Source: an uncultured delta proteobacterium (GTDB lineage: Bacteria > Desulfobacterota > RBG-13-43-22). Taken from it: 64,000 nucleotides of DNA. Each line of letters starts with the position of its first letter. The stretch's first letter is position 1. A program made the translations under genes and the position numbers. Where the stretch lies: positions 67,679 through 131,678 of the forward strand of contig CAVUPH010000008.1 of assembly GCA_963743305.1 (NCBI GenBank). Direction: 5' to 3'. Below, piece after piece: positions 12,883-48,591 of this stretch. The notes under the pieces were generated by a model that saw only the letters and a program-made list of their open reading frames with translations, made no database searches and had not been told where the DNA came from.

Positions 12883-12919
12883 TGTTTCACATTTGTTTCA
12901 TTTGTTTCATTTTAGTTTC
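12883..12919. repeat. tandem TGTTTCA motifs, probable enhancer (UAS)
   Basis: TGTTTCA at 12883, 12894 and 12903; inverse TGAAACA at 12994; 80-190 bp upstream of a sigma54 promoter. Confidence 0.55.
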
Positions 12920-13076
12920 TTTTGCTATTTAATAATTATAATATTGATTTAATTAATAATTTTATTAAACTGCCTTAGCAGTATATCCCCCATTGAAACA
13001 TTTATACTGGCCGCCTTTACTTAAAAAAATTGCCAAAATATTAATTTATTACATTAAATAAATAAGTTATATTATT

Positions 13077-13092
13077 AGGCATATCTATTGCA
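13077..13092 (+). promoter_or_regulatory. sigma54 -24/-12 promoter of the nuoEFG-like/hdrA-like operon
   Basis: AGGCAT-ATCTA-TTGCA within an AT-rich stretch. Confidence 0.7.
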
Positions 13093-13147
13093 ATCTAAAG
13101 AAGACATGAAACTTGGTTGAAATAATACGAATTGCAGGAGGTCTAGG

Positions 13148-13612: not shown

Positions 13613-13631
13613 CGGAAAGAAGGAAGAGCCT

Positions 13632-15533: not shown

Positions 15534-15551
15534 TTAAAGGAGGTCCGCGCA

Positions 15552-16169: not shown

Positions 16170-16172
16170 GGT

Positions 16173-32665: not shown

Positions 32666-34252
32666 ATGTCGACTGCGAATCCGATGAACTCAGAAACGGA
32701 TCATCAAACGCCATTATTCCCCGAAGCTTCTTCCGAAAGCCAAGCCGAAGCCACAGAAAACGGTTTTTCCGGAAAACCCAACTTAAGTATTCGCACCCGC
32801 ATCACCCTCGGTTTTTTTATCTGCTTTGTCATGGCCTTGGGTATAACGCTGGCCTCCCTTTATGTCGTCTATCGCCTGGAAGACAAGCTTCATTTCTTAA
32901 AAGTGGCCGACAATTTTTCCTTTGAAATCCAACAGGCACGTCGATTTGAAAAAAATTATTTCCTCTACGGTACGAATTTGGCCGATGCCCTCTACCACGT
33001 AAATACGGCCTTGTCCTTTCTGGACACCAATCACCTCAAAATCGCCGGGGTTATCGGAAGGAAGTCCTACGATACCCTGTTCTCCCATACCGAGACCTAC
33101 CGGTCGCTCCTGGAAAATTTACAATTGATCGTCAGCAGACGGGAATCGGCTCCCCCCGGACAACGTATCCAACTGGAATCGGACCTCCGCATCCATGGGG
33201 GGGAGATGATTTCCTTGGCTTTCAATTTGGTCCAGGAGGAGCGACAATCGGTCGAGGAAATGTTTACCAGTGCCAAGCGGGTTCCTATCTATTTCATGAT
33301 TTTCCTTTTTTTATTAATGGGTTACTTGGCCCATCTCTTAACCCGGCAAATTTTAGGACCCTTGAAACAGATATTAGGTTACACCCAACGAATTTCCCAA
33401 GGAGACTTCAAACCCGTAATTCCCACCCGACACTATAAAGATGAGTTTTCCGCCTTGATCTTAGCCATGGATCGCATGTTGAAAGAACTCAGCCACCGCC
33501 AGGAAGTATTGGTCCAGTCTCATAAGCTCCGGGCCGTAGGCAATTTGACGGCCGGCGTGGCCCACGAGTTGAACAACCCCATCAATAATATTTCGCTGAC
33601 CGCCCATCTCCTTTTGGAGGATTATCGCGACCTACCGGACGAGGAGCGTCTGGAAATGATCCGGGATCTCATCAGTCAGGCGGATCGGTCCCAGGGGATC
33701 ATCCGGAACCTGCTGGATTTCGCCCGGGAGGGCGAATCCAAAATCGAACCGCTGGATTTGGGCCAGATCATCCAAGAAACAGTTCGGCTGGCGGGCAACC
33801 AGATCAAGATTTCCGGGGCCCACCTGGAGGTCAGCGTCCTGCCCCAACTCCCGCGCATCCACGGGGATCACCAGCAATTGACCCAGGTCTTTTTAAATAT
33901 TGTTTTAAACGCCATCGACGTCATTCCCAAAGGAGGAAGGATTCAAATCTCCGTGGCCCAGGAGGGGCCTAATTTCTTGGCGGTCAAAATCACCGACAAT
34001 GGTCCGGGGATCCCCGAACATATACTGCCTAACGTCTTTGATCCCTTTTTTACAACCAAGACGAAAGGAAAAGGAACCGGGTTAGGGCTTTCGGTTTCTC
34101 ATGGAATTGTTGCCCGGCACGGGGGGCAGATCCGGGCAGACAGCCAAGTGGGCGTCGGCACGACCTTTACCGTCATCCTGCCCGTCACCACCTTCCCGGC
34201 TCCGGAATTAAGTTCCAAAGTGGAAATAACCGGAGGGCCCCCGGGCCGATGA
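32666..34252 (+). CDS. HAMP sensor histidine kinase
   Basis: EIQQARRFEKNYFLY, AHELNNP, DNGPG, GTGLGL. Confidence 0.92.
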   Translation: MSTANPMNSETDHQTPLFPEASSESQAEATENGFSGKPNLSIRTRITLGFFICFVMALGITLASLYVVYRLEDKLHFLKVADNFSFEIQQARRFEKNYFLYGTNLADALYHVNTALSFLDTNHLKIAGVIGRKSYDTLFSHTETYRSLLENLQLIVSRRESAPPGQRIQLESDLRIHGGEMISLAFNLVQEERQSVEEMFTSAKRVPIYFMIFLFLLMGYLAHLLTRQILGPLKQILGYTQRISQGDFKPVIPTRHYKDEFSALILAMDRMLKELSHRQEVLVQSHKLRAVGNLTAGVAHELNNPINNISLTAHLLLEDYRDLPDEERLEMIRDLISQADRSQGIIRNLLDFAREGESKIEPLDLGQIIQETVRLAGNQIKISGAHLEVSVLPQLPRIHGDHQQLTQVFLNIVLNAIDVIPKGGRIQISVAQEGPNFLAVKITDNGPGIPEHILPNVFDPFFTTKTKGKGTGLGLSVSHGIVARHGGQIRADSQVGVGTTFTVILPVTTFPAPELSSKVEITGGPPGR

Positions 34253-35679
34253 AAGTGTTTCCTTCGACCATCCGGGGGCAGGTCATCATGGCCTTTTCAG
34301 CCTGCTTCCTGTTCATGGCCCTGATGATCGCCATCAATTACGGTAATTTTTACCGTTTGAGCAGCTCCATGCAATTTTTTGAAATCGCCGAGGAACTCAA
34401 CAGCAGCCTGCTGGAAATGCGGCGCTACGAGAAAAATTATTTTCTTTATCAAAAAGAATATGACTTTGAAGAAAACCTGACCTACACCAACCGGCTGGGA
34501 CTGATCCTGAATCGAGAAAGGGAAAACCTGATCCGGTCCATGGGAAAGGAGAATTACGATCGATTCATAAAGAATACCGGCGAATATTCCTCCTCGATGG
34601 AGGCGCTGAGGAAGAATCCCATGAAGAAAGAGGAGAACCTAGCCCTCCAGGGAAAAATCCGGGGGACCGGCCAGAACCTCCTGGTCCTAGCCGATCAACT
34701 GATTGCCGGTGAACGCCGGGAAATCAATCAGCGCCTGCAGCGCATGATATCTTTTCCCATGCTTAATTTAGTCGTTCTGGTCCTGTTACTGGGATTTGTG
34801 GTTTTTTTTATCGGGGAAAAAATCATCCGTCCGCTGGCCCGGATTACCCGGGAATCCGAGGCCATTGCCCAGGGTATTTTTCACGGAAAGATTTCACCGC
34901 TGCTGGGGAATACCGACAACGAAATCTGCCGCCTGACCGCGGCCCTCAACCGGATGATGACCGAGTTGGAAAGCCGCCAGGAGCAACTGGTGCAATCCCG
35001 AAAGATCGCCGCCGTCGGCACCCTGACCTCGGGAATCGCCCACGAGATCAATAATCCCATCAATAACATCGTTCTGACCCTGGAAACCCTGGCTGAAGAC
35101 AACCAAACCCTATCACCGGAAGATCGGCTACAATTATACCAAGAGGCCCTGGATCAGGCCGACCGGGCGAGTGATATTGTCAAGAATCTTCTGGAATTCT
35201 CCCGAGCCAATCATCCCCGACGTGAGGAAGTTTCCCTGGAGGAACTGATCGACAAAACCATCCGCCTGCTGAATAATGAGTTTAAAGTCCATCGAATAAA
35301 GATAACCAAAGAAATAAAATGGTTGTTTCCCAAGCTACTCCTGGATAAGAGCGGCTTGCAGCAGGTATTGGTCAATCTTCTATTAAACAGCATACAGGCC
35401 ATGCCCGAGGGCGGCAAGTTGAATATTATCCTGGATCGAGTCAACCATGAAGCGCGAATCGACATCATGGACACCGGACCGGGTATCCCCGCCGAGAACC
35501 TGAGCCGGATTTTTGACCCCTTTTTCTCCACGAAAAAAGGAGGGACGGGCCTGGGTCTTTCGGTAAGTTATAATATCCTCCAAAACCAAGGAGGTCGGAT
35601 CGAAGTTCAGAGTTCGGAAGGCCAGGGAACTACCTTTTCCCTTTACCTTCCTTTTTCTGAGAAAGCAGTCGGTATTTGA
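34249..35679 (+). CDS. HAMP sensor histidine kinase
   Basis: LLEMRRYEKNYFLY, AHEINNP, GTGLGL; ATGA overlap with the previous gene. Confidence 0.92.
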   Translation: MKVFPSTIRGQVIMAFSACFLFMALMIAINYGNFYRLSSSMQFFEIAEELNSSLLEMRRYEKNYFLYQKEYDFEENLTYTNRLGLILNRERENLIRSMGKENYDRFIKNTGEYSSSMEALRKNPMKKEENLALQGKIRGTGQNLLVLADQLIAGERREINQRLQRMISFPMLNLVVLVLLLGFVVFFIGEKIIRPLARITRESEAIAQGIFHGKISPLLGNTDNEICRLTAALNRMMTELESRQEQLVQSRKIAAVGTLTSGIAHEINNPINNIVLTLETLAEDNQTLSPEDRLQLYQEALDQADRASDIVKNLLEFSRANHPRREEVSLEELIDKTIRLLNNEFKVHRIKITKEIKWLFPKLLLDKSGLQQVLVNLLLNSIQAMPEGGKLNIILDRVNHEARIDIMDTGPGIPAENLSRIFDPFFSTKKGGTGLGLSVSYNILQNQGGRIEVQSSEGQGTTFSLYLPFSEKAVGI

Positions 35680-35802
35680 AGGGATCCTTTTTTTCGGTTC
35701 CAACTACCCGGCGGCAGGCGGACACCCCTTTCCACCCCATCCTCCCGGTCCAGCAGACCAGGTTTCGGGTAAATTAGGAATCGCCCGGCACCCTTTCTTG
35801 AT

Positions 35803-35898
35803 CGTTTCATTTTGGAACAAAGCCTCCGGCTACTCACACCTTCCAAATTATAACCTTTTTATTTTAATTGATTTTTATTTGCTGGCCCTTATATTGTA
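35803..35898 (+). promoter_or_regulatory. enhancer-like palindrome plus variant sigma54 promoter
   Basis: CGTTTCATTTTGGAACA (35803-35819); TGGCCC-TTATA-TTGTA (35883-35898). Confidence 0.55.
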
Positions 35899-35945
35899 TT
35901 ATAACTTCGTAAGAAAGAAAATGGCCAAGAGACAAAGGAGATGCG

Positions 35946-36335
35946 ATGGGAAGGCCTTGGGAGTTATTGATTATTGACGATGAACCCCTGGTGGGTCAAC
36001 GCCTCAAGCCCGCCCTGACCAAGGAAGGGTATCGGGTGGAGATTTATACGGATCCGAAAGAGGCCATCGCCCGGTTGGGAGAAAAAAGTTTTGACATTGT
36101 GGTGACTGACATCCGCATGGAGGAAATGGACGGGTTGCAGGTGTTGGAAGGCGTCCTTCAAAAATCCCCCGCCACCAAAGTGATCATGATCACCGGATAT
36201 GCCACCTTGGATATGGCCCATGAATCCCTAGCCAAAGGGGCCTTTGATTTTATTGCCAAACCGTTTCGAATCGGGAGGATCCGAGAAGTTATCCTGAAGG
36301 CGGCCCAAACCTTGGAAAAGGAGGGAAAACGATGA
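35946..36335 (+). CDS. stand-alone response regulator
   Basis: IDDEPLV, TDIRM, ITGYAT, AKPF. Confidence 0.92.
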   Translation: MGRPWELLIIDDEPLVGQRLKPALTKEGYRVEIYTDPKEAIARLGEKSFDIVVTDIRMEEMDGLQVLEGVLQKSPATKVIMITGYATLDMAHESLAKGAFDFIAKPFRIGRIREVILKAAQTLEKEGKR

Positions 36336-36729
36336 AAATCTATCGCAGTAATATGGAAAAAATCTTGGATAAACAGGAAGAGGATACTATTATTACCAAT
36401 CCCAGGCAACCGGTAAGAACTTTCTTCCGAAAAATCAATTATCTTTTTTCCCTCTGGAAAGAAAAATTAGGAAAAATATTTCGGCCCTAGACTTCCTTGC
36501 CTTAGTTTCGGTCTCCACGAAAAAGTGTCCCATCCCCCTGCCTGATCCTTAGGGTACCAAGTCCTGGGAGAGGGTCCGATCACTCCGCCCCTTTTTTTCT
36601 AACTGCCCCCCTTGTAGATAATTTTTATTGACCTGAAGAAAAATTAATAATGCGCTTGCTTTTAAGGAAAAGCAGTTCTATAAATTTTTAATAACAATAA
36701 AGATTATCTGAAGGTTGGACGAGGAAGGT

Positions 36730-38814
36730 ATGGAAAAAGAAATTTATAGCCTGTGCTTCATGTGTTCGGTCCGTTGCCCCATCAAGGTGCTGGTCAAGGA
36801 CGGGCAAGTCCGGTGGATCGAGGGGAACCCGCACGTGCCAGGAATGGAGGGGAGCCTGTGTCCCCGAGGGGCGGCCGGTATCTCCATGCTTTATGACGAT
36901 CAGCGGCTTAAATATCCCCTGATCCGGGTCGGCGAGCGCGGAGCGGGGCATTTCAAGAAGGCCTCCTGGGAACAAGCCCTGGATTATGTGGCCGAAAAAT
37001 TGAAGGACATCATAGCCGCCCATGGGGGGCACAGTGTGGTCCTCGGCGAACGCACCCAACTGGCCACCCATGTTACCAAAACCTTTGCTCGGGCCATACA
37101 ATCGCCGAACCATTTTACCCATGACGCCCTCTGCAAGGGTTCGATCAACACGGCCTGCCGCAGCCTTTTCGGATACACCGACGCCCAGATGGGCCTGGAT
37201 TACAAGAACACCAAGCATCTGGTCCTGTACGGCCGGAATCTCTTTGAGGCCATCGAGGTCAAGGCGGTTAACCAGACGATGGAGGCCCTGGGAAAAGGGG
37301 CTCGGCTGACCTATATCGATCCCCGGGTGTCCATTACCGCCACCAAGGCCCACCGGTATTGGATGATCCGGCCGGGGACCGATCTGGCACTCAATTACGC
37401 CCTGATCCAGGTGATTCTCAAAGAGCGGCTTTATGACGCGGCCTATGTCGACCGCTGGGTGCTGGGACTGGCCGAACTGCAGGATTTTATTTATCCCTAT
37501 ACCCCGGAATGGGCCGAAAAGGAAACCGGGATTCCCGCCGAACAGATTGTGGACCTGGCCCGGGAGGTCAGCCGGGACAAACCCTCGGTACTATTTCATT
37601 TTGGCTATCGGGGCTCCAATCAAACCAACGAAATTTATATGCGTCGTTCTATCATGATGCTCAACGCGCTGATGGGTAGTGTCGAGGCTCGCGGGGGTTT
37701 CTTTTTCAAGAAAGGACCGGGAGCGGTCGACCGCCAAGCGGCCCGAAAACTGACCGAGCAGAAATTCCCCAAAATCGAGGTTCCCCGCTTCGATAAAGTG
37801 GGCACTCGGGATTTCCCCTTGCCGGACCCGAATCACGGGGTGGGTCAGATGCTGCCCCAGGCGATCTTGAATGAGGACCCCTACCCGATCAAGGCGCTCC
37901 TCGCCTTTCGGTTTGATCCGCTCCAATCCATTCCGGATACGAACCTGACCAAAAAAGCCTTGAGCAAACTGGACCTGATCGTCTCCGTCGATATCAACCC
38001 CAGCGATATCGCCTGGTATTCGGACGTGGTGTTGCCGGAATCCACCTATCTGGAGCGAACCGACTGCGTCCAGCAGGCCAATGGCTTGAAACCGCAGATG
38101 TTTTTAAGAAGGCAGGCGGTGCTCCCCCGCTACGATACCCGGGAAGGGGCCATGATCCTTAAACAGATCGCGGAAAAGATCGGTATCGGAAAATATTTTC
38201 CCTACGGCAGCATGGAGGAACTGGTCTCCTGGCAGTTGGAAGGAACCGGTTTCACCCTGGAGGATTTTGAGGCCCGGGGCTCTGTCGCCTACACCAAAAA
38301 TCAAATATTCTGGGATCGAAATGATGGGATAAAATTCAAAACCCCTTCCGGTAAAATTGAATTCAAATCTTCATTGCTGGAAAACGCCGGTTTTGCCTCT
38401 TTTCCGCCCTACGAACCCCTGCCGTCACCGCCGGAGGGCCGGTTCAGACTGGTGGTGGGGCGCACGGCCCTGCATACCCACCTTTCCACCCAAAATAATC
38501 CCTACCTGAACGAAATTTGTCCGGAAAACGAGCTCTGGATCAATGAACAAAAGGCGGAGGAGCTGGGTGTTCTAGACGGGCGGGAGGTAACGGTTTCTTC
38601 CAAGGTCGGTGAGGGTACGCTCAAGGCCAAGGTGACCGAGCTTATTCATCCGGAGGCGGTCTTCATGCTCCATGGTTTCGGCCATGAATCCAACCTGGCC
38701 GCCCGGGCTTTCCATAAGGGCTGCTCGGACGCCATGCTGCAGGAGAACCTCTCCGACCAAATCGGTGGCAGCCCGGCCCTTCACGAAACTTTTATAACCG
38801 TGAAACCGGCCTGA
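36730..38814 (+). CDS. molybdopterin oxidoreductase catalytic subunit, PsrA/PhsA-like, no Tat signal
   Basis: CFMCSVRC...LCPRG, RLKYPL, HDALC, IRPGTD, DVVLPESTYLER, C-terminal bis-MGD-binding domain. Confidence 0.9.
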   Translation: MEKEIYSLCFMCSVRCPIKVLVKDGQVRWIEGNPHVPGMEGSLCPRGAAGISMLYDDQRLKYPLIRVGERGAGHFKKASWEQALDYVAEKLKDIIAAHGGHSVVLGERTQLATHVTKTFARAIQSPNHFTHDALCKGSINTACRSLFGYTDAQMGLDYKNTKHLVLYGRNLFEAIEVKAVNQTMEALGKGARLTYIDPRVSITATKAHRYWMIRPGTDLALNYALIQVILKERLYDAAYVDRWVLGLAELQDFIYPYTPEWAEKETGIPAEQIVDLAREVSRDKPSVLFHFGYRGSNQTNEIYMRRSIMMLNALMGSVEARGGFFFKKGPGAVDRQAARKLTEQKFPKIEVPRFDKVGTRDFPLPDPNHGVGQMLPQAILNEDPYPIKALLAFRFDPLQSIPDTNLTKKALSKLDLIVSVDINPSDIAWYSDVVLPESTYLERTDCVQQANGLKPQMFLRRQAVLPRYDTREGAMILKQIAEKIGIGKYFPYGSMEELVSWQLEGTGFTLEDFEARGSVAYTKNQIFWDRNDGIKFKTPSGKIEFKSSLLENAGFASFPPYEPLPSPPEGRFRLVVGRTALHTHLSTQNNPYLNEICPENELWINEQKAEELGVLDGREVTVSSKVGEGTLKAKVTELIHPEAVFMLHGFGHESNLAARAFHKGCSDAMLQENLSDQIGGSPALHETFITVKPA

Positions 38815-38922
38815 TCGGAATGCATTGTGGACGATTTCAGATTGGACCGGGAATGAAGCCACGGCCGCTCAACCCGCTTCGATCCTCGTTGGCCGATCGT
38901 CCTTAATAACGGGAGCCAAAGA

Positions 38923-39444
38923 ATGAGTAAATATTTCTTATTGCAGGACCAACAGAAGTGTATCGGCTGCCATGCCTGCGAAATTCAATGCAAAAGCAAT
39001 AAATCCCTGCCCATCGGGCCCAAGCCCTGTCAAATCATCCCCGTGGGCCCTAAATTTATCAACGGCCTGCCGCGGGCCTCGTTTATTTTCATGCCCTGCT
39101 TTCACTGCGAAAATCCCTGGTGCGTGGCAGCCTGCCCCACGGGCGCCATGCAAAGAAGGGCTAAAGACGGGATTGTCTTTGTGGATCACCACCTCTGTGT
39201 GGGCTGCAAGACCTGCATTTCCGCCTGCCCCTGGGGTGCGCCCCAGTGGAATCCGGAAATCGGGAAGGTGGTCAAGTGCGATTACTGCATGGACCGCATT
39301 GACGCCGGGCTCAAGCCGGCCTGCGTGACAATCTGCACCACCCATTGTCTTAACTTTGCCCAAACCGAGCATATCCCGCTGGTCAAACGGGAGCGTTATG
39401 CCCGGGCCATGGCCTCCACGAAGGGCGCGGCCACGCTGGAGTAA
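38923..39444 (+). CDS. 4x[4Fe-4S] subunit (PsrB/PhsB-like)
   Basis: CIGCHAC, CFHCENPWCVAACP, CVGCKTC, KCDYC...PACV. Confidence 0.92.
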   Translation: MSKYFLLQDQQKCIGCHACEIQCKSNKSLPIGPKPCQIIPVGPKFINGLPRASFIFMPCFHCENPWCVAACPTGAMQRRAKDGIVFVDHHLCVGCKTCISACPWGAPQWNPEIGKVVKCDYCMDRIDAGLKPACVTICTTHCLNFAQTEHIPLVKRERYARAMASTKGAATLE

Positions 39445-39458
39445 GAGGAAGCGGCCCC

Positions 39459-39914
39459 ATGGATGTAGCCACGATCAACGCGATCCTGTCGAAGTTTCCG
39501 GAGATAAAAGGCAATCTCATCGCCGCCCTCCACGAAATTCAAAATCAATTTCACTACCTGCCCGAAGAGGAACTGCGGTATCTCTCCAAAAATAAAAATA
39601 TACCTATTACCCAGATCTATAGTATCGCCACCTTCTATAATCGGTTCAGCCTCAAGCCAAAAGGCCGCCATCAGATTAATGTCTGTCTGGGAACGGCCTG
39701 CCACGTCAAAGGGGCTGAAAAAATCCTGGATGAGATAAAACGCCGACTCCAGATTGAGGTGGGAGAAAATACGGAGGACATGAATTTTTCGCTGGATGAA
39801 GTTCGATGTATCGGGGCCTGCAGTTTAGCGCCGGTGGTGGTTATCAATGAAGATACCCACAGCCAGGTGACACCGAAAGAGGTCGGAAAACTTTTGGGCC
39901 GTTATGGGTCCTAA
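39459..39914 (+). CDS. NuoE/HydC-like subunit
   Basis: IATFY, VCLGTACH, RCIGAC. Confidence 0.92.
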   Translation: MDVATINAILSKFPEIKGNLIAALHEIQNQFHYLPEEELRYLSKNKNIPITQIYSIATFYNRFSLKPKGRHQINVCLGTACHVKGAEKILDEIKRRLQIEVGENTEDMNFSLDEVRCIGACSLAPVVVINEDTHSQVTPKEVGKLLGRYGS

Positions 39915-40020
39915 ACTGTTTTCGTAGCGTTCCTGGTTTTATGTTTTTTATCGGATGAACCGGACCCCCGCTTTCGAGAACGGCGGATTCAATCCTACGA
40001 ACTGAAGTAACCCTTCCCCT

Positions 40021-41790
40021 ATGACTAAAGAAATCGTCATCAGTGTTTGTACCGGCACAGGAGGGATCGCGGCCGGGGGCTACAAGGTTTTGGCCGCCTT
40101 TGAGGAAGCCCTGGGGGACAGCGACCTGAAGGTCCGGTTTAAACCTCGTACCCATAAAGTGGGCTGCCGTGGTTTTTGCGCCAAGGATGTCCTGGTCGAT
40201 GTAGTCGTTGACGGCCAAAAAGAAACCTACCAGTTTGTTACCCCGGAACGGGCGAAAGAGATCGTTGCCCAACACCTCCTGGGAGGTGCGCCGGTCAACC
40301 AATGGCTGGTAAAGGAAGACTACCATGCCTTTCACAGCAAACAACAAAAGCTGGTCCTGAAAGACTGCGGCCAGATAGATCCGGAATCCATCGACGAATA
40401 TATCGCCGCCGGGGGCTACCGGTCCGCCCGGAAGGCCTTGTCGCTGGATCCGATGCAGATTGTCCACATGATAAAAGAATCGGGCTTGCGGGGACGGGGC
40501 GGCGGCGGTTTCCCTACCGGGGTCAAGTGGGAGAGTTGCCAAAAAGCCGAGGGGAAGATCAAATACGTGTTATGCAATGCCGATGAGGGCGACCCCGGCG
40601 CCTTTATGGACCGCTCGGTCCTCGAGGGAAACCCCCATTCCGTAATCGAAGGCATGATTGTTGGGGCCCGGGCCGTTGGATCCACGGAAGGCATTGTCTA
40701 TATCCGGGCCGAATACCCATTGGCCGTAAACCGCCTTCGACTGGCCCTGGAGCAGGCCCGGGAACGAAAATTTCTGGGGAATGACATTTTTGAGACCACC
40801 TTACAGTTTAATATCAAAATAGTATTGGGTGCCGGCGCTTTTGTCTGTGGGGAATCTACGGCGCTGATGACCTCCATCGAAGACAAGGCCGGTGAGCCCC
40901 GCCCCAAGTACGTACATACTACCGAACGCGGACTCTGGGGCCGCCCCAGCTTGTTGAACAATGTGGAAACCTGGGCCAATGTGCCGTTGATCATCGAGCA
41001 GGGTCCCTTGTGGTATTCCGGTATCGGCAGTGAAAAAAGCAAGGGCACCAAAATATTTTCCCTGGTGGGAAAAATTAATAACACCGGTCTGGTGGAAGTG
41101 CCCATGGGGATTCCGTTGCGGGATATCATTTTTGGAATCGGCGGGGGAATTCCAAATAAAAAGGCGTTCAAAGCGGTTCAAACCGGCGGCCCCTCGGGTG
41201 GATGCATTCCGGCCAGCCATCTGGACATGCCCGTGGATTACGAACACCTTTCCGAGGCCGGCTCCATGATGGGTTCCGGCGGTATGATCGTTTTGGATGA
41301 AGACGACTGCATGGTGGATGTGGCCAAATACTTTCTGGAGTTCTGTCTGGATGAAGGCTGCGGCCAGTGTACTCCCTGCCGGGAGGGTGTCGCCCAGATG
41401 GTACGTCTGCTGAAAGAAATCACCCAGGGGAAGGGAACGGCGGGACACATCGGTCTGTTGGAAGAGTTGTCCGCCATGATCAAAGACGCGTCTTTATGCG
41501 GATTGGGCACCTCGGCGCCGAATCCCGTGTTATCCACCCTGCGGTATTTCCGCCACGAATACGATGCCCACATCTTAGAGAAACGCTGCCCGGCCGGGGT
41601 CTGCAAGGCGTTGACTACCTTTATCATCAATCCCGAATTATGTACCGGGTGCGGTTTATGCGCCAAAAATTGCCCGGCGGAAGCCGTCACCGGGGAGAAG
41701 AAAGAACCCCACTTCATCGACCAGAAAAAATGCGTTACCTGCCGGACTTGTTATGAAAAATGCAAATTCGGGGCAGTGCAGATCGACTAA
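40021..41790 (+). CDS. NuoF/HydB-like subunit
   Basis: LRGRGGGGFPTG, NADEGDPGAFMDR, GAFVCGES, CGQCTPC, C-terminal 2x[4Fe-4S]. Confidence 0.95.
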   Translation: MTKEIVISVCTGTGGIAAGGYKVLAAFEEALGDSDLKVRFKPRTHKVGCRGFCAKDVLVDVVVDGQKETYQFVTPERAKEIVAQHLLGGAPVNQWLVKEDYHAFHSKQQKLVLKDCGQIDPESIDEYIAAGGYRSARKALSLDPMQIVHMIKESGLRGRGGGGFPTGVKWESCQKAEGKIKYVLCNADEGDPGAFMDRSVLEGNPHSVIEGMIVGARAVGSTEGIVYIRAEYPLAVNRLRLALEQARERKFLGNDIFETTLQFNIKIVLGAGAFVCGESTALMTSIEDKAGEPRPKYVHTTERGLWGRPSLLNNVETWANVPLIIEQGPLWYSGIGSEKSKGTKIFSLVGKINNTGLVEVPMGIPLRDIIFGIGGGIPNKKAFKAVQTGGPSGGCIPASHLDMPVDYEHLSEAGSMMGSGGMIVLDEDDCMVDVAKYFLEFCLDEGCGQCTPCREGVAQMVRLLKEITQGKGTAGHIGLLEELSAMIKDASLCGLGTSAPNPVLSTLRYFRHEYDAHILEKRCPAGVCKALTTFIINPELCTGCGLCAKNCPAEAVTGEKKEPHFIDQKKCVTCRTCYEKCKFGAVQID

Positions 41791-41802
41791 GGAGAGGGCG
41801 GG

Positions 41803-42621
41803 ATGGCCGGCATGATCACGATAACCATCAATGGCCGAAAGATAAGGGCGGAGGAAGGAATGACCGTTCTGGAAGCCGCCACCCGGGAAGGCATCTTTAT
41901 TCCGACCCTGTGTTACCATGAAGCGCTGGAACCCGAGGGAACCTGCCGCCTCTGTCTGGTTGAGGTGAGCGGTTCGATCCGGCCGGCTATTCGGGTCTCC
42001 TGCATCCAGGAAGTGCAGGAAGGTCTGGTGGTGGAAACAGACACCGAACGCGTTAAAAAAAATCGGCAGCTTATTTTGGAATTGTTGCTGGGGCGTACGC
42101 CTTACTCCAAGGAACTGCTGGACTTGGCCTCCCGCTGCGGGGTCACCTCGAGCCGTTTCCGCACGGGAGAAAACGATGATTGCGTCCGCTGCGGGCGGTG
42201 TGTCCGGGTTTGCCGGGACAAAATCGGCGTCTATGCCCTCTGCTGGGCCAATCGGGGATACGCTCGCAAGGTAACGACGGATTTTGAACGACTTTCCGAA
42301 TATTGTATCGGCTGCGGGGCCTGCGCCCAGGTCTGTCCTACCGGGGCAATCCGGGTCGAGGACCGAGGCGATGAGCGAAAAATATTCACCTGGGGACAGG
42401 TGCTGGCCCGTTTTAAACTGGAAAGATGCGAGCATTGTGGAAACCCTTTTGCCCCTAAGAAATACCTGGAGCTGATCAATGAAAGAGCCTACAAACCCAA
42501 GGGCCTCGAATTGATAAACTATATCTGTCCCGAGTGTTACGAGATGAAAGATCGGGCTTCCGAGAAGCGCCGGGAAGGCAGCCTGCTGCAGGTAATCAAA
42601 TGGTCGGTTCCCAGGGAATAA
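41803..42621 (+). CDS. HoxU/NuoG N-terminus-like Fe-S subunit with extra CxxC pair
   Basis: IPTLC, GTCRLC, CVRCGRC, CIGCGAC, CEHC...CPEC. Confidence 0.9.
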   Translation: MAGMITITINGRKIRAEEGMTVLEAATREGIFIPTLCYHEALEPEGTCRLCLVEVSGSIRPAIRVSCIQEVQEGLVVETDTERVKKNRQLILELLLGRTPYSKELLDLASRCGVTSSRFRTGENDDCVRCGRCVRVCRDKIGVYALCWANRGYARKVTTDFERLSEYCIGCGACAQVCPTGAIRVEDRGDERKIFTWGQVLARFKLERCEHCGNPFAPKKYLELINERAYKPKGLELINYICPECYEMKDRASEKRREGSLLQVIKWSVPRE

Positions 42622-42665
42622 CCAGACCATTGGGATAATCCTCTTCCAAAAAGAAAGCGCGGCTT

Positions 42666-44820
42666 ATGTCCGATCCTTGCCCGGTAAACACAACGATCCT
42701 AAAATTGAAAGACCTCTTGGAACCCGGCCGTCTTCAGGACCCCCAATCCCGGCGATTGTCCGAAGAGGCCCTACAGCTCCTGAATGATATCGCCTGGGGG
42801 AGGGCCGGGGAAGAGCATCTGGGTTTTCTGCAATCGCTGGCCCAAACGTTAATGGCTGACGGCCGGGATACGGCCGGCCAGGAGGCCGGCGCCATATATT
42901 CAAGCCGCCCTTCATGATCACCGAGAGGTATTTCTCAGCCATATCCAGACCCATAACTGCATCACCGGCGATTGCGTTCGCCTGGTCCCGGCCCCCTGCC
43001 AGATGACCTGTCCGGCGGGAATCGACGTCCCCACTTACGTGAACCTTATCGGTCTCGGCCGGGACGCCGAAGCCATCGAAGTCATTCGCCGCGACAATCC
43101 TTTTCCCTGGGTCTGCGGCCTGATCTGCACCCGACCCTGCGAGTTCATGTGCGTGCGTGGCCGGATCGACCAACCGATTTCCATCAAGTTCCTCAAGGCC
43201 TTTGCCGCCGAATGCGCGATCTCGGACCGACACTACCGGAACCCGACTAAAAAGCCGGACCAAGGCCGGCGCGTGGCCGTTATCGGTGCCGGTCCCGGGG
43301 GCCTGACCGCGGCCTACTATCTGGCGCTCCAAGGTTATGCCGTAACGGTGTTCGAGGCGCTGCCGGTGGCGGGTGGCATGATGATGCTCGGCATTCCCCG
43401 GTACCGGCTGCCCCGGGAGGTCATCGACCGCGAGGCGGCCATGCTGGAGGACCTGGGCGTGGCCTTCCGCTTCAACACCCGGTACGGCCGCGACGTGACC
43501 TGGGCGGGTTTGCGATCCAAGGGGTTCCAGGCGCTGTTCCTGGCCATCGGCGCCCATGAATCTTTAAAGCTCTATATCCCGGGGGAAAATGATTTCCCGC
43601 AGGTCATCGAGGCCGTCGACTTTCTACGACGGGTGGCGCTGGGAGACCACCGGATTCCCGGAAAGCGGGCGGTCATCGTCGGCGGCGGCAACGTGGCGAT
43701 CGACGCGGCTCGCACCTGTTTGCGGCTGGGCTCCGATGAGGTAATCATCGCCTACCGGCGAACCCGGAACGAAATGCCGGCCGATGTCGAGGAATTGGAC
43801 CAAGCCGAAGAGGAAGGTATTGTCCTGTCGTTCCTGACCATCCCCATAGCCGTTCTCGGCCGGGACGGCCGCCTGACCGGCTTGCTTTGTCGCCGCGCCG
43901 AAATGATCCGGAAAGAAGGCAGCGACCGCCCCTCTCCAGTCCCGGTGGAGGGAAGTGACTTCCTCCTCGAGGCCGATACGATCATCTCGGCCATCGGCCA
44001 GCGCATCGACCTGGAGTGCCTGGACGATTTAAAAGACCTCAAATGGTCGCGGCGCCAGACCATCTTGGCCAACCCCGTTACCCTGGAAACTGCGATCCCC
44101 GGGGTATTTGCCGGCGGCGATGCCGTCACCGGCCCGGCTACGGTCGTCGAGGCCATCGGGGCGGGCAAGCGCGCCGCCGAAGCCATCGACCGCTACCTGT
44201 CCGGGATTCCCCAGCCTAAGATGCCGCCGGTACCGGTTCGTCGCGGGCGGGTGGAATGGCTCGATGTCCCGGCCAGCACCAAGATGACCCTTCGGCGTCC
44301 GGAAATGCCGCTGCTCAACCTCGAACGACGGCGCATCACCTTCCAGCAGGTGGAGCTCGGCTACCCCGAAAACGCCGTCCGGGAAGAAGCCCGACGCTGC
44401 CTGCGCTGCGACATCTGTCTGCGCTGCGGCCGGTGCGTCGAGATCTGCCGGGACCAAATGGGCCTCGACGCCCTGGCGTTCGGTTTTTTAAACTTCGATC
44501 ACCCGGCGCTTACGGACTTCCGATTGACGGCCGAACGCTGCATCTTGTGCGGCGCCTGCGCGGCCAATTGCCCCAACCAGGCCCTCCGCATCATCGACCG
44601 CGGAGACGAGCGGCTTCTGTCCTACTGCGGCACCATTTTAAATCGCCAGAAGCTGGAATACTGCCGGAATTGCGGCACGGTCCTGGGCCCGGCGCGGTAC
44701 CTGGAATTTTTACAGAAACGGACTCAAGGCGTCGGTCCGGCCCTGACCACCCGGCCTTTGTGCCAGGCCTGTGCCCGCCAGCAGACCGCCAGGGCCCATG
44801 TGGAAATGCACCCGGCCTAA
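42666..44820 (+). CDS. GltD/NfnB-like FAD/NADP-dependent oxidoreductase with ferredoxin tail (frameshift near 42895)
   Basis: PCQMTCP, CGLICTRPCE, GAGPGG, GIPRYRLP, GGGNVAID, YRRTR, GGDAV, RCLRCD plus 2x[4Fe-4S]; removing one base joins ORF 42666. Confidence 0.88.
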
Positions 44821-44859
44821 CCCCGGCCGCCTGCGGCCGCTGTAATAAGGAGCGCATCC

Positions 44860-45072
44860 ATGGCTTTTCACCGAGGTCAAAAAGTGGAGATATTCTGTAA
44901 ATCCCAAGACGAGGGCTGGGAGAAGTACATGGACCAGTACCTGGGCCGCCACGGGATCATCACCGATCCGGATACCTCCAAAAACGATCCGGATGCCTTG
45001 ATCGAGGTGAGTGTGGAAGGCAAGGGCACGTACCGCTTTCCCCAGGACTGCCTGCGTCCTCTCCCGGAGTGA
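44860..45072 (+). CDS. small hypothetical protein, SH3/KOW-like pattern
   Basis: RBS AAGGAG; FHRGQKVEI...GRHGII...IEVSV...YRFPQDCL. Confidence 0.65.
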   Translation: MAFHRGQKVEIFCKSQDEGWEKYMDQYLGRHGIITDPDTSKNDPDALIEVSVEGKGTYRFPQDCLRPLPE

Positions 45073-45168
45073 CCCGGCCGGGCCCTGCCCGCCGCACCGG
45101 GGACCATTTTCCAGGCGACGTTTGGAGAAACGCCCGGTGTGCTCCTGCCGTCCCAAGAAAGGTCCGCA

Positions 45169-45756
45169 ATGATGATCCAGACGATTGGCCGGTTTGCTTT
45201 CGGGGAATTCGTCGACCGGGTAAAGGCCTTCCATGGTTTTCCCGCCCCCGGGGTAATCCTGGGCGGAGTCATGGTCGATTTGGCCATAAAAAATTTGCCG
45301 GATCATATTTTGTATGATGCCCTTTGTGAAACCGATAAGTGCCTCCCGGATGCCGTTCAATTGCTGACCCCCTGTACGGTGGGCAACGGGTGGCTAAAGG
45401 TTCAGGATTGGGGTCGGTTCGCCCTGGCTCTCTACAATAAAAAAACCGGGGCGGGGATCAGGGTGGTTTTGAATCCTGCTCGGGTGGAAGAGTGGCCTGA
45501 AATCAAGGACTGGTACTACAAACTGAAACCCAAAAAGGAAGGGGACCCGGAAAAACTTCTCATCGCTATCCAAGGGTCCGGGCATAGGCTCTGCTCGCCG
45601 CAGAAAATCCAGATTCAGCCCGCGCTGCTGATAAAAAAACCCAGGGGAAAACGGGTCGTCTGTCCCCAATGTCAGGAAGCCTTTCCGGCAGACGCTCCAG
45701 GAATCTGTTTAGCCTGCCAAGGGAAATCTCCTTACCTTTCCCAATGCAGGGAATAA
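45169..45756 (+). CDS. FmdE-family protein with C-terminal Zn ribbon
   Basis: FHGFPAPG, CLPDAVQLLTPCTVGNG, CPQC...CLACQG. Confidence 0.88.
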   Translation: MMIQTIGRFAFGEFVDRVKAFHGFPAPGVILGGVMVDLAIKNLPDHILYDALCETDKCLPDAVQLLTPCTVGNGWLKVQDWGRFALALYNKKTGAGIRVVLNPARVEEWPEIKDWYYKLKPKKEGDPEKLLIAIQGSGHRLCSPQKIQIQPALLIKKPRGKRVVCPQCQEAFPADAPGICLACQGKSPYLSQCRE

Positions 45757-45839
45757 CCCATTTCCATTCGGCAAAATTTAATGGACGATGGGCTGGAGAC
45801 TATGGTAAAAATGGCCACGGGCTCCTAAAAAATTGACGC

Positions 45840-46148
45840 TTCGCCCTTTTGGGTGGGTACCCCTTGGATCTAGTATGGCCATCTGGTCTCGGCGAAAGGG
45901 TTTTCCAAAGGTACTCCGGACTTCGAATCCGGGCCGAAATTACTCATTTTATTTGAAGCAGGCCCAAACTCAGAGACTTTTGATGCTTCCCAGGCTGGCC
46001 CTGCTTCCGGGAAGATTTAGAAACACTGGGGCCGGGTTAGAACCTATAAGGCCAGGTGGAAAACCCTTTCGCCGAGACCAGATGGCCATGGGGGCCTGAT
46101 TTCAGTCTAATCTACTAGATATCGTGGCCACCCACCCAAAAGGGCGAA
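45840..46148. repeat. nested inverted-repeat element (structured RNA, MITE-like or invertible segment)
   Basis: Perfect 19-bp IR (45840-45858/46130-46148), 8-bp IR (45868-45875/46113-46120) and perfect 33-bp IR (45875-45907/46057-46089). Confidence 0.85.
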
Positions 46149-46190
46149 CAACCAAAAAGTTTAGGGATTCAAAAGAGGAAAAGACCGACC

Positions 46191-46562
46191 ATGACCAACT
46201 TAAAATTTCATCCGGACCATTCCTGGATTCGAATGGAGGGTGATATCGGCATCATCGGCATCTCCCATTTTGCCCAGGAGCAGATGGGCAAGATTATCTA
46301 TGTGGAATTGCCCGAGCCCGGGACCGAGGTTATCGCCGGTGAACCGCTGGGAGCTCTGGAATCGAGCAAAGTGACTTCCGATCTCATCGCTCCGATAAGC
46401 GGCGAAGTCATAGAATCCAATCAGGACCTGGACCAAGAGCCCACCCTGATCAACGATTCCCCTTACGAACGGGGATGGATCACCCGGGTCAGGCTGAAAA
46501 ACCCGGCTGAAATCGATGCCCTGATGGAAGAGGCCGCTTACCTCGCCCGGGTCTCCAATTAA
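46191..46562 (+). CDS. gcvH: glycine cleavage system H protein
   Basis: HSW, GISHFAQ, lipoyl-Lys motif LESSK, INDSPY.GW. Confidence 0.92.
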   Translation: MTNLKFHPDHSWIRMEGDIGIIGISHFAQEQMGKIIYVELPEPGTEVIAGEPLGALESSKVTSDLIAPISGEVIESNQDLDQEPTLINDSPYERGWITRVRLKNPAEIDALMEEAAYLARVSN

Positions 46563-46575
46563 CTGATTTTCAGAG

Positions 46576-48024
46576 ATGAGTATCCGCATCGGCATTATCG
46601 GCGCCGGACCGGGGGGTTATATCGCCGCCATCCGCGCCGCCCAGTTGGGCGCGGAGGTCCTCCTTTTTGAACAGGAGGAAGTGGGGGGGACCTGCCTGAA
46701 CTGGGGTTGCATCCCCACTAAGACCCTGAGGACCACCGCCGAGGCCCTTGAGCAGTTTCACCGGGCCAGGGAATTGGGAATTGATCTGGAGGGCGGCTTT
46801 AAACCCAACCTGAAGCGGATCATGTCCCGGAAAAACGAAGTAATTCAGATCCTGGTCCAGGGCATCCGAAAAATTCTGAGCAGCTATAAAATCCAACAGG
46901 TCTCGGGCCAGGCCTTCGTGGCCGATCCCCGGATGATCAAGGTTCGGGAAAACCAGGGCGGGGAACAGAAATTCCCGGTGGATAAGATGATCCTCGCTCC
47001 CGGTTCCCGGCCTCTGGCTTTTCCGGCCTTTCCCTTTGACGGGACCCACATCCTCTCCAGTAACGACGCCCTGACCCTGGAAACGATTCCGGAATCCATC
47101 CTGATCATCGGCGGCGGGGTGATCGGTTGCGAATTCGCGTTTATTTTCCAGGCCCTGGGCAGCCAGGTGACGGTGGTGGAGGCCCTGCCCCGGGTCATCG
47201 GCCTGCCTTCGGTGGATGGGGACTGCTCCACGGTCCTGCAGCGCGAAATGAAAAAAAAGAAGATCCGTCTTTATCTGGACAAGACCGTGGAACAGACAGA
47301 AGTCCAAAACGGACGGGTCAAAGTGACCATCGGGCCTTCCCCCTTTCTTGTGGAAGCAAAAGAAAAGGATAAAAAAACCGTCGAGGTGGAGGTGCGGCAG
47401 GTCTTAGTCACCATAGGACGGCAGTCAAACACCGAAGTCCTGGGGCTGGAGTCCTTGGGCCTGGAGCGGGATACCCGGGGCTGGATCAGGGCCAATGAAC
47501 GGTTGGAGACCAATATCCCCGGGATCTATGCCGTTGGGGACGCCCTGGGGCCGTCCAAGATCATGCTGGCCCATGTGGCCTCCACCGAAGGGATCCTGGC
47601 TGCTGAAAACATCATGGGCCGTAAGCGGACCATGGATTACGAAGTGGTGCCCTCGGGAATATTCACTTTCCCCGAGGTTGCCAACGTGGGCCTCACCGAA
47701 TCCCAAGCCGGCCTGCGGGGCCTGGAAGTGCGGGCCGACAGCTTTCCTTTTCGGGCCCTGGGAAAACCCCAGGCGATGGGAGAAATCGTGGGGCAGGTCA
47801 AAATCATTTCGGAGCGAAAAAACCTGAGGATAGTGGGGGTCCATATCGTCGGGCCACACGCCACCGATCTGATCGCCGAAGGGGCCCTGGCGATCCAAAT
47901 GGGGGCCACGGTGGAAGATCTGGCGCGGACCATCCACGCCCACCCCACCCTGTCCGAGGCGGTTCTGGAAGCGGCCCATCAGGCCCTGGGCACAGGCCTG
48001 CATAGTTTAAAAGAGAGCCATTAA
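46576..48024 (+). CDS. lpdA: dihydrolipoamide dehydrogenase
   Basis: GAGPGGY, GGTCLNWGCIPTK, GGGVIG, HAHPTLSE. Confidence 0.95.
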   Translation: MSIRIGIIGAGPGGYIAAIRAAQLGAEVLLFEQEEVGGTCLNWGCIPTKTLRTTAEALEQFHRARELGIDLEGGFKPNLKRIMSRKNEVIQILVQGIRKILSSYKIQQVSGQAFVADPRMIKVRENQGGEQKFPVDKMILAPGSRPLAFPAFPFDGTHILSSNDALTLETIPESILIIGGGVIGCEFAFIFQALGSQVTVVEALPRVIGLPSVDGDCSTVLQREMKKKKIRLYLDKTVEQTEVQNGRVKVTIGPSPFLVEAKEKDKKTVEVEVRQVLVTIGRQSNTEVLGLESLGLERDTRGWIRANERLETNIPGIYAVGDALGPSKIMLAHVASTEGILAAENIMGRKRTMDYEVVPSGIFTFPEVANVGLTESQAGLRGLEVRADSFPFRALGKPQAMGEIVGQVKIISERKNLRIVGVHIVGPHATDLIAEGALAIQMGATVEDLARTIHAHPTLSEAVLEAAHQALGTGLHSLKESH

Positions 48025-48030
48025 AAAAAC

Positions 48031-48058
48031 TTGACAAGCCGATTATTCGTGATAAAAT
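48031..48058 (+). promoter_or_regulatory. sigma70 promoter of the cold-shock gene (long 5' UTR)
   Basis: TTGACA-16 nt-TAAAAT with extended TG; ~160 nt leader to ATG 48223. Confidence 0.6.
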
Positions 48059-48222
48059 TTGTAGTTAAGCAGTTAAATCCGTTATGAGTTCATGCGGAAT
48101 ATCATAGCGGTCGAAGTTGGTGGTAGATAAGAAAAAGTCCAAGCATCGTGGATAATGAGTCGATGCCTTTATTTTTTTATTCGTATCCCAACTTGAGAAA
48201 TCTGAAAAGGAGGGATACGAGT

Positions 48223-48426
48223 ATGCCAGAAGGACACGTGAAGTGGTTCAACGAAAGTAAGGGCTTTGGTTTTATCGCGGTCGATGGTCAGGAGAAAGAC
48301 GTTTTTGTTCACCATTCAGCAATCACCATGCAAGGCTTCAGAACTTTGGCCGAAGGTCAACGCGTAAGCTTTGATATCGAAGAAGGCAAAAAAGGCCCGG
48401 CGGCAACCAATGTAAAAGCTTTGTAG
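48223..48426 (+). CDS. cold-shock protein
   Basis: [20 protein letters not shown]; RBS AGGAGG. Confidence 0.95.
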
Positions 48427-48449
48427 AAACCAGATTTCTCAAGAAAACC

Positions 48450-48485
48450 AAAAAAGGGGTTGAGCTTCCGTTCAACCCTTTTTTT
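48450..48485 (+). terminator. intrinsic (probably bidirectional) terminator
   Basis: A-run, GGGTTGA...TCAACCC, T-run. Confidence 0.8.
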
Positions 48486-48591
48486 GTTTTTATTCGCTCT
48501 TTCGGTAAGCGCTTATTCGGCTTTTGGGCCTTCGTATTTTATTCGAATTTCATGCTTCAAATGGCGGATGTACGGATATCAACTATCCCCT

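Follow-up and report, generated by a model that had tools for sequence, protein, structure and literature searches.

Within a 64,000-nucleotide stretch of contig CAVUPH010000008.1 (contig C8) from an uncultured delta proteobacterium of the sulfate-reducer type, hereafter the window, whose coordinates are used throughout, the forward strand between 36730 and 45756 carries a cluster of eight genes, read as nine open reading frames (ORFs), one gene being split. The cluster combines a leaderless relative of the thiosulfate and polysulfide reductases with subunits resembling those of electron-bifurcating flavoenzymes. Its gene content, the absence of a leader and of a membrane anchor, the family placements of its products, its conserved synteny and the exchange of a cassette within a genus are matters of observation. 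The reading that we favour, to which we give slightly less than an even chance, is that these genes specify a cytoplasmic thiosulfate reductase linked to NAD(P)H and ferredoxin and possibly confurcating; its physical wiring, substrate and bifurcation are what we infer. The assembly from which the window is taken comprises 4.9 Mb in 43 contigs and is 90% complete, with 5.7% contamination. A sequence-only reading of the same DNA had described a soluble, possibly bifurcating sulfur-compound oxidoreductase, and all the elements it named were recovered at the expected positions by ORF calling and by Pfam and NCBIfam searches.

The catalytic subunit, A (36730-38814, + strand, as are all genes of the cluster), is a PsrA/PhsA-like protein of 694 residues belonging to the molybdenum/tungsten-bis(pyranopterin guanine dinucleotide) enzymes. 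Its three domains, PF04879 (residues 8-60), PF00384 (64-488) and PF01568 (577-692), follow one another in that order and all exceed the gathering score. The best solved relative is Thermus thermophilus PsrA (PDB 2vpw_A, E 4.6e-116, 392 bits), known as a polysulfide reductase. Acetylene hydratase, ArrA and formate dehydrogenase were rejected as assignments, since they score far below 2vpw (180, 179 and at most 165 bits, respectively). Among the NCBIfam models PhsA (NF012032) came first with 597.5 bits, the next being the formate dehydrogenase alpha subunit with 251 bits. The first cysteine of the N-terminal Fe-S motif (FS0) is residue 9, so that eight residues precede it, and A contains no RR motif. 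Since only six in-frame codons are open upstream of its ATG (an open frame of 700 residues for a match of 694), an in-frame twin-arginine translocation (Tat) leader is impossible, which bears out the leaderless start proposed by the sequence-only reading. The 120 best homologues listed are 684-714 residues long, mostly 694. The HDALC motif (residues 131-135), put forward in that reading as the source of a cysteine ligand, holds up on alignment: its cysteine pairs with that of 'SLC' in Thermus PsrA and falls in the cysteine column of the PhsA and PsrA clades (the PsrA Cys173 column). Note that the same genome contains a second Psr/Phs-like gene outside the window (contig C40, 23784-25676), 41-51% identical to A and in four pieces, one of which contains a TGA; a broken gene, a selenoprotein and a fault of assembly are all conceivable.

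Subunit B (38923-39444), of 173 residues, is a PhsB/PsrB/DmsB-like four-cluster ferredoxin carrying four cysteine groups (PF13247 Fer4_11, E 2e-26; TIGR02951, 141.6 bits, under the cut-off), and no signal peptide was found on it. The proposed absence of an NrfD/PsrC membrane anchor was likewise borne out: the PF03916 profile matched once in the 4.9-Mb assembly, on contig C6, with no match on contig C8. Indeed, every ORF of the cluster except one of 70 residues falls in a Pfam family other than the NrfD/PsrC- or PhsC-type membrane subunits.

The position of A within its family was determined from a search of 1.84 billion cluster representatives, of which the 150 best matches were retained. A first tree (FastTree, with its SH-like supports) comprised 132 rows, namely the 126 matches of 640-860 residues (the 24 others were shorter or longer), the query, four Desulfobacterales homologues and a plasmid-borne PhsA. 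A second tree (IQ-TREE under the posterior mean site frequency model, short search, SH-like approximate likelihood ratio supports) was built from 44 rows chosen by hand among those of the first. In both, the query lies in a clade whose members have no recognizable Tat motif (18 rows in the first tree, 15 with a short and 3 with a degenerate N-terminus; 15 rows in the second; support 100). This clade is sister, with a support of 99 in both trees, to a five-row Tat-bearing clade that holds the PhsA of an Escherichia coli plasmid, annotated as such by the Prokaryotic Genome Annotation Pipeline (PGAP). P0151, which represents the Thermus PsrA cluster (1165 bits to 2vpw), belongs to a different, all-Tat clade. 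When the clusters of ten representatives were looked up, two bore names, Bilophila for that of P0133 and 'bacterium' for that of P0136. The phylogeny by which the sequence-only reading had proposed to be judged thus puts A in the Psr/Phs, sulfur-compound part of the dimethyl sulfoxide (DMSO) reductase family, next to PhsA and not in a non-sulfur clade.

In the query and its close relatives, both the FS0 cysteines and the ligand cysteine are conserved, and 8 of the 13 other leaderless representatives do not have the latter (P0121, P0128, P0136, P0161, P0199, P0130, P0131 and P0139, three of them being devoid of the FS0 cysteines as well); such relatives may be inactive scaffolds or use another ligand. 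That A itself is a dead pterin scaffold of the StnC kind is unlikely, FS0 and the ligand cysteine being kept in the query clade. It should also be mentioned that A is 73-77% identical to homologues of other families and only 58-60% identical to those of a congener (G169) and of the sister genus, a pattern that suggests either transfer or two lines of orthologues.

These trees bear on a rival reading in which the architecture is the same and the substrate is polysulfide or another sulfane-sulfur carrier, the enzyme being an NAD(P)H-linked cytoplasmic Psr-like sulfur reductase or detoxifier. It is encouraged by the rank of 2vpw among the solved relatives of A (392 bits) and by the Joint Genome Institute's name for the homologues, 'thiosulfate reductase/polysulfide reductase chain A'. 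PMC9431562 moreover describes a cytoplasmic NAD(P)H-dependent polysulfide reductase activity in other organisms, where it belongs to an unrelated protein family. By contrast, the query groups with the PhsA clade and not with the Thermus PsrA clade, and neither the PsrA-type histidine column nor the GRH motif is kept. Furthermore, the polysulfide couple lies at about -260 mV, and such an acceptor would need no low-potential donor; the confurcating module described below would then be unexplained, although bifurcation towards ferredoxin would still be possible. Overall, we regard polysulfide as a distinctly unlikely substrate.

To define what accompanies A, we surveyed relatives taken at one genome per species. 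The family is widespread, with a relative encoded in 313 of 331 candidate stretches from species-representative genomes. The best 80 of these 313 were taken; their A proteins are 73-81% identical to that of the window and almost all come from Desulfobacterales, Desulfosarcina widdelii PP31 among them. B directly follows A in all 75 loci with at least 0.7 kb of downstream sequence. Forty-six loci extend at least 6.5 kb downstream; of these, 44 contain a GltD-like gene, 40 a gene for a small SH3-like protein, 39 a NuoG-like gene of any kind, and 8 NuoE and NuoF together. Over the 80 loci, NuoE or NuoF occurs in 12. With B after A in 75 of 75 loci and a GltD-like gene in 44 of 46, this adjacency is not due to chance. 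The conserved core is PhsA-PhsB-GltD-SH3-NuoG', the NuoEF genes being an accessory cassette, and the conserved partner of the molybdoenzyme is the GltD-like protein, not NuoEF. The order A-B-NuoE-F-G-GltD-SH3 recurs in five other loci (L002, L006, L008, L014 and L042), where both parts of GltD lie in one frame. The only two of the 46 loci without a GltD-like gene (L021 and L046) have the order A-B-NuoE-NuoF-NuoG.

The arrangement was also followed further afield, in a 401-genome sample of the phylum. In 40 of these genomes A has a match at 58% identity or more, and matches of leaderless length at 40-51% occur in many others. We inspected the surroundings of A in 20 distant genomes picked from this sample. 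In 18 of them, A and B are same-strand neighbours; 7 have a GltD-like gene after the pair, including one locus (L098) with an A of only 44% identity; two have NuoE-F-G next to A-B (L095, the A-B pair being 45% identical, and L106); and a TauE-like gene is nearby in 8.

The three genes that follow B in the window encode the putative bifurcating module. The first (39459-39914, 151 residues) specifies a NuoE/HydC/StnA-like, BfuC-like [2Fe-2S] subunit (PF01257, E 2.6e-50; NuoE NF005722, 142 bits for a cut-off of 141). The second (40021-41790, 589 residues) specifies a NuoF/HydB/StnB-like, BfuB-like FMN/NADH subunit, identified by Pfam and by alignment to solved B subunits. Its Pfam domains (residues 4-84, 151-322, 433-517 and 535-586, including PF01512) correspond to an N-terminal thioredoxin-like domain, the FMN/NADH domain, an N3-type 4Fe-4S domain and a C-terminal 2x[4Fe-4S] domain, whereas NuoF/Nqo1 has neither the first nor the last of these. 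The protein is collinear over residues 7-588 with five solved bifurcating B subunits, those of NfnABC (9bov_B, 734 bits), the NiFe-hydrogenase HydABCSL (7t2r_B, 722), the archaeal Nfn-Bfu (9n5u_B, 712), HydABC (7q4v_B, 711) and Stn (8oh5_B, 681), and reaches only 359 bits with Thermus Nqo1 (2fug_1). The possible bifurcation raised by the sequence-only reading is strengthened by this comparison of full-length matches at 681-734 bits with 359 for Nqo1. The N-terminal domain has only three cysteines (C10, C49 and C53); NfnB and StnB likewise keep only one cysteine of the first pair.

The third gene (41803-42621) encodes a NuoG-like, BfuA-like subunit with PF13510 and Fer4 domains, a 2Fe-2S site, 2x[4Fe-4S] and a CxxC...CxxC tail; its best solved match is 9mqx_A (247 residues, E 5.4e-46). 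All three genes announced as NuoE/F/G-like are thus present, with the qualification that the last is a short form of 272 residues, and with NuoE-like and NuoG-like genes alongside the NuoF-like one, the C and A parts of a Bfu module are in place. The next gene (42666-44820) encodes a GltD/StnC/NfnA-like FAD/NAD(P)H flavoprotein (PF14691, PF07992), closest to the GltD domains of NfnA (9bov_A, 404 bits) and StnC (8oh5_C, 353 bits), and bears a C-terminal 2x[4Fe-4S] domain of its own. Two pyridine-nucleotide sites had been predicted for the system, which fits a PF01512 FMN/NADH module accompanied by a GltD-like FAD/NAD(P)H module closest to StnC/NfnA. The C-terminal domain of the NuoG-like protein, 2x[4Fe-4S] and cysteine tail, is 47% identical to the C-terminus of the GltD-like protein (E 3e-32), and we consider that this shared domain is likely the connector to PhsB. 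A predicted complex of B with the NuoG-like protein reached a median score of 0.53, the best of three controls scoring 0.00; at least 87% of the contacts agreed between runs and the predicted local distance difference test score (pLDDT) of the partner was at least 81. In the calibration of this score, 58 of 80 solved complexes and 2 of 110 mismatched pairs attained the mark; with a score of 0.60 or below, only 7 of those 80 did so, as did both mismatches.

The resemblance of these subunits to known transhydrogenases raises the possibility that the cluster encodes two enzymes, NuoE, NuoF, the NuoG-like and the GltD-like proteins forming a stand-alone NADPH:NAD+/ferredoxin transhydrogenase of the Stn/Nfn-Bfu type next to a PhsAB-like enzyme that depends on ferredoxin. 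It is indeed in the B and A subunits of NfnABC and Stn (9bov, 8oh5, 9n5u) that the NuoF-like and GltD-like proteins find their best solved matches, the pterin-like domain of StnC is inactive (PMC10482914), and seven distant A-B pairs stand without either module (L093, L094, L096, L097, L099, L102 and L103). Yet the GltD-like gene adjoins A-B in 44 of 46 loci, most of them devoid of NuoEF, and the two loci lacking it have NuoE-F-G after A-B; since either module can be found by itself with A-B, each separately keeps company with PhsAB. In addition, the GltD and NuoG parts are fused in Stn/NfnA and are separate genes here, and the score of 0.53 against 0.00 for B with the NuoG-like protein gives weak support to a single complex. 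We therefore hold two independent enzymes to be quite improbable.

The GltD-like gene, present as the sequence-only reading had it (GltD/NfnB-like), turned out to be interrupted. It extends over two frames (42666-42917 and 42853-44820), the PF14691 match stopping at profile position 35, as a result of a +1 frameshift near 42892, where the window has one base more than the intact gene of locus L090. The latter comes from a genome of the same genus (G312) whose A is 96% identical to that of the window; intact homologues in a single ORF of about 718 residues are found in L050 (the locus of D. widdelii PP31, of the core type) and L090. Aligned with L090 by blastn, the window matches it collinearly at about 93.5% DNA identity in two blocks, 36645-39425 and 42774-45834, and the DNA separating them has no alignable counterpart. 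Between the blocks, L090 has about 0.97 kb with a different NuoG-like gene, and the window has a 3.35-kb cassette (39426-42773) made of NuoE, NuoF, the NuoG-like gene and the 5' end of the GltD-like gene, i.e. its first codons. Given that the cassette is present in the window and replaced in this congener, the Bfu module has been gained or lost within a genus. Note that in L090 gene A is also separated from the upstream region by an additional stretch of about 7.6 kb (10470-18082 of its own numbering), which is missing from the window (junction at 36651/36645) and includes a weak histidine-kinase match.

The frameshift could mean that the system of the window is decaying or mis-assembled, the GltD-like gene having become a pseudogene after the Bfu cassette took over, or the junction being an assembly artefact of the metagenome bin. 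Besides the extra base itself, this explanation draws on the position of the frameshift, about 120 bp past the right-hand cassette breakpoint (42774), and on the fragmentation and contamination of the assembly (43 contigs, 5.7%). The four public DNA runs examined over the cluster gave short low-depth contigs only, which left cover at 42892 unconfirmed and yielded no indel rows. Decay or mis-assembly is countered by the collinearity of the flanks with the congener (about 93.5%), by the intactness of all other genes and by the five loci in which the same gene order goes with a one-frame GltD. Moreover, single-base indels are common among assembly errors. Decay or mis-assembly appears very improbable to us as an account of the cluster.

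Two more genes complete the cluster. The first (44860-45072), the small SH3-like gene of the sequence-only reading, is present and conserved 3' of the GltD-like gene. Its 70-residue product belongs to no family, has 24 invariant columns in a 17-row alignment and, in an AlphaFold2 model (pLDDT 82), folds into a small beta-barrel with one helix. The best fold matches, all weak (E >0.001), are PetP, NdhS, the variable chain of ferredoxin:thioredoxin reductase and PsaE, and the Atlas lead is PetP (0.92). SH3-like is hence a fair description of the predicted fold; that the protein docks ferredoxin, an idea suggested by NdhS and PsaE, is speculation by analogy. The second (45139-45756) encodes an FmdE-family protein with a treble-clef zinc finger (PF02663, E 8.9e-34; PF23475). 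The gene is as announced and both expected domains are found, yet it is not a conserved part of the system, being absent from all 46 related loci; a copy 90% identical occupies the same position in the same-genus L090 only. FmdE is a lineage-specific addition, kept only in the congener.

We propose that the cluster specifies a soluble PhsAB-like enzyme that would be wired to pyridine-nucleotide and ferredoxin modules, and not through a membrane anchor to quinone. The conserved input would be the GltD-like FAD/NAD(P)H flavoprotein, and the 2x[4Fe-4S] domain shared by the GltD-like and NuoG-like proteins would pass electrons to the four clusters of PhsB and then to the pterin site; the acquired HydBC/StnAB-type (Bfu) module would add an FMN/NADH site and a ferredoxin-type 2x[4Fe-4S] domain. 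Thiosulfate would be reductively cleaved in the cytoplasm into sulfite and sulfide. With the Bfu module, the reaction would be driven by NADH and reduced ferredoxin (confurcation, as in HydABC) and/or by NADPH, and the sulfite would go on to Dsr or to a TauE-type exporter. Thiosulfate is favoured because of the sister position to PhsA, of published proteomics and of energetics. Indeed, the thiosulfate couple, quoted at -402 mV in PMC13490349, is close to the -414 mV of H+/H2, for which HydABC confurcates NADH and ferredoxin (PMC9304861).

A more elaborate version, which we consider doubtful as a whole, is that the products form one soluble 'Phs-Bfu' hub with four sites. In it, the HydBC-type core would confurcate NADH and reduced ferredoxin, the GltD site would add NADPH, the thiosulfate reductase would work at about -400 mV, the SH3-like protein would be a ferredoxin-docking subunit (an analogue of NdhS/PsaE) and the shared 2x[4Fe-4S] tail would be the plug that permits cassette exchange. 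If true, such a hub would remove the thermodynamic problem that periplasmic PhsABC has with menaquinol.

Several observations weigh against the thiosulfate reductase that we favour. NuoEF is not present in 68 of the 80 loci nor in the closest congener, and since it is missing from most carriers, bifurcation cannot be how the family works in general; in the window the GltD-like gene carries a frameshift, so that one input module may be dead here; and the predicted complex of B with the NuoG-like protein is weak as support for the wiring. As to the fate of the sulfite, dsrA and dsrB were not found in the 90%-complete assembly of the window, in which aprA was found, and dsrA exceeded the cut-off in all four same-genus or same-family genomes checked. 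As to the substrate, the Psr/Phs branch handles several, so that a position next to PhsA leaves it unfixed. A is under the equivalog cut-off of PhsA NF012032 (597.5 versus 694 bits) and is only 33.7% identical to the PGAP-annotated PhsA of E. coli plasmids. Where PsrA has His145, the PhsA clade has Lys/Arg and the query clade Glu, and the Arg motif reads GYR in the query, GHR in PhsA and GRH in PsrA; as His145 and Arg332, presumably the substrate-side residues of PsrA, differ across the three clades, the substrate is not readable from the sequence. Thiosulfate-reductase activity is put forward by analogy with the sister clade and with the proteomics of other Tat-less PhsAB-like proteins, which resemble A by description.

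The same features feed a further alternative, namely that the architecture is as described and serves another substrate: sulfite oxidation (Soe-like, towards NAD(P)+/ferredoxin), tetrathionate or trithionate, arsenate or selenate, or an organosulfur anion imported by a TauE-like permease. The missed PhsA cut-off and active-site neighbours unlike both PhsA and PsrA are compatible with it, as is the rank of ArrA, third among the solved relatives of A. Gene neighbourhood adds to this: of the 80 loci, 43 extend 7.5 kb or more upstream, and among these 38 have a sigma-54 response regulator, 35 a PAS kinase and 14 a 589-residue TauE/SafE-type permease. Dedicated two-component/sigma-54 regulators thus adjoin the cluster in 38 of 43 loci, which points to an inducible, specific substrate, and TauE/SafE permeases are annotated, by the name of their Pfam family, for sulfite and sulfonates. 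These permeases fit an anionic sulfur substrate or product without discriminating between the candidates. On the other side stand the sister position of A to PhsA, the induction of Tat-less PhsAB-like proteins on thiosulfate (PMC13490349) and the consideration that cytoplasmic NAD(P)H reduction of high-potential acceptors would waste energy. We judge another substrate to be unlikely.

Comparison with known systems helps to place a cytoplasmic thiosulfate reductase of this kind. PhsABC of Salmonella and the E. coli plasmid and PsrABC of T. thermophilus (2vpw) share with it the three catalytic domains, the FS0 cysteines, the column of the cysteine ligand and a four-cluster B subunit. They differ from it in having a Tat leader and a PhsC/PsrC anchor with quinol as partner, where the window enzyme has neither and has flavoprotein partners instead; A also has other residues in the PsrA columns for His145 and Arg332, positions to which we ascribe the role assumed above.

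Comparable in layout are the PhsAB-like proteins known from proteomics in Dissulfuribacter thermophilus and Desulfolithobacter dissulfuricans, which are Tat-less and devoid of a subunit C and for which cytoplasmic thiosulfate cleavage has been proposed (PMC13490349, PMC9751629). In D. thermophilus, such a Tat-less, PhsC-less pair is among the proteins most increased during thiosulfate disproportionation, its electron source being left open (PMC13490349); according to PMC9751629, the earlier of the two, no PhsAB had been functionally analysed so far. In the portions consulted, these papers name no electron-input subunits and guess that the electrons come from sulfite oxidation, whereas the window cluster encodes GltD-like and Bfu modules. 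In Desulfobacterota, thiosulfate reduction or disproportionation has been proposed to begin with Tat-less PhsAB-like enzymes; the GltD-like and Bfu proteins would provide testable donors for these, NADPH in the former case and NADH plus ferredoxin in the latter. Surveys that count a PhsA/PsrA orthologue as periplasmic respiration would misread these cytoplasmic forms.

On the side of the electron-input module, Stn/NfnABC (8oh5, 9bov, 9n5u) has in common with the window the bifurcating core of a NuoE-like and a NuoF-like subunit, a GltD-like NADPH/FAD domain, a NuoG-like 2Fe-2S/4Fe-4S domain and the presence of a pterin-enzyme-like part in the assembly. StnC joins a 2Fe-2S domain, a GltD domain and NuoG clusters to an inactive FdhF-like domain in a single chain, and StnAB acts as the bifurcating module (PMC10482914). 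In Stn/NfnA, the GltD and NuoG parts form one chain within a three-gene unit, whereas in the window they are separate genes amid those for the PhsAB-like, SH3-like and FmdE proteins. The pterin domain of StnC is inactive and FdhF-like; the pterin protein of the window is separate, of the Psr/Phs type, keeps FS0 and the ligand cysteine and has its own four-cluster partner. The window thus encodes all the parts of a Stn-like enzyme in separate genes, plus an apparently intact pterin enzyme.

The classification of Bfu enzymes follows what is attached to an invariant BfuBC core (PMC9304861). In the type 2/3 enzymes, i.e. the HydABCSL NiFe-hydrogenase (7t2r), Fdh-Bfu and WOR-Bfu (9mqx), the BfuABC 'plug' sits on a separate catalytic module, as in the window, whose short BfuA is closest to that of WOR-Bfu. 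Where the window differs is in the Psr/Phs type of its catalytic module and in its second, GltD-type nucleotide site. If the proposal is true, a sulfur-compound reductase joins the catalogue of Bfu-type bifurcating enzymes. In the main text of the Bfu classification paper (PMC9304861), the words polysulfide, thiosulfate and DMSO have 0 occurrences. No PhsAB-GltD or PhsAB-Bfu link was found in the literature searched, and the supplements of PMC9304861 (Bfu clade tables) and PMC12998232 (complex iron-sulfur molybdoenzyme trees) may list such clusters. Cytoplasmic PhsAB-like proteins and the Bfu family are both already in print.

Upstream of the cluster, the window carries a sigma-54 response regulator gene (31101-32477, - strand), two HAMP histidine kinase genes (32666-35679, +) and a gene for a receiver-only response regulator (35946-36335, +), all identified by Pfam. 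Within the cluster, the gaps between successive genes are 108, 14, 106, 12, 44, 39 and 66 bp. Matches to a sigma-54 promoter pattern numbered 24 in the window, where 21.8 were expected, and none of them fell in 36336-36729, upstream of A. Over 35600-46700, a sigma-70 scan found 9 promoter-like sites for 6.0 expected and a terminator scan 19 terminator-like sites for 15.7 expected. As these counts are near expectation, the limits of the operon rest on gene spacing alone.

The 589-residue permease type of the relatives has no counterpart in the genome of the window, the best match being 31% identical, and an Atlas search with its N-terminal 288 residues gave no usable match. Two other permease genes of the TauE/SafE family (24655-25593 and 27678-28766, -) are found 8-12 kb upstream of the cluster, one on each side of a HAMP histidine kinase gene (25597-27153). 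On its 3' side are genes for a GcvH-like lipoyl carrier (46191-46562) and a dihydrolipoamide-dehydrogenase-like flavoprotein (46576-48024), then, on the opposite strand, a DsbD-like protein (48592-50433); this stretch (46191-50433) is collinear in the same-genus congener.

Finally, the window contains a second Bfu-type cluster (11137-18596, +), which comprises genes for a PAS/sigma-54 activator (11137-12882), a NuoF-like protein of 659 residues with N- and C-terminal Fe-S domains (13554-15533) and a protein of 807 residues with an MvhD/FlpD domain (16173-18596), all on the + strand, together with further ORFs at 13148-13612 and 15552-16169. A DnaA gene is located at 57451-58794 (-), and the replication origin may lie near it.

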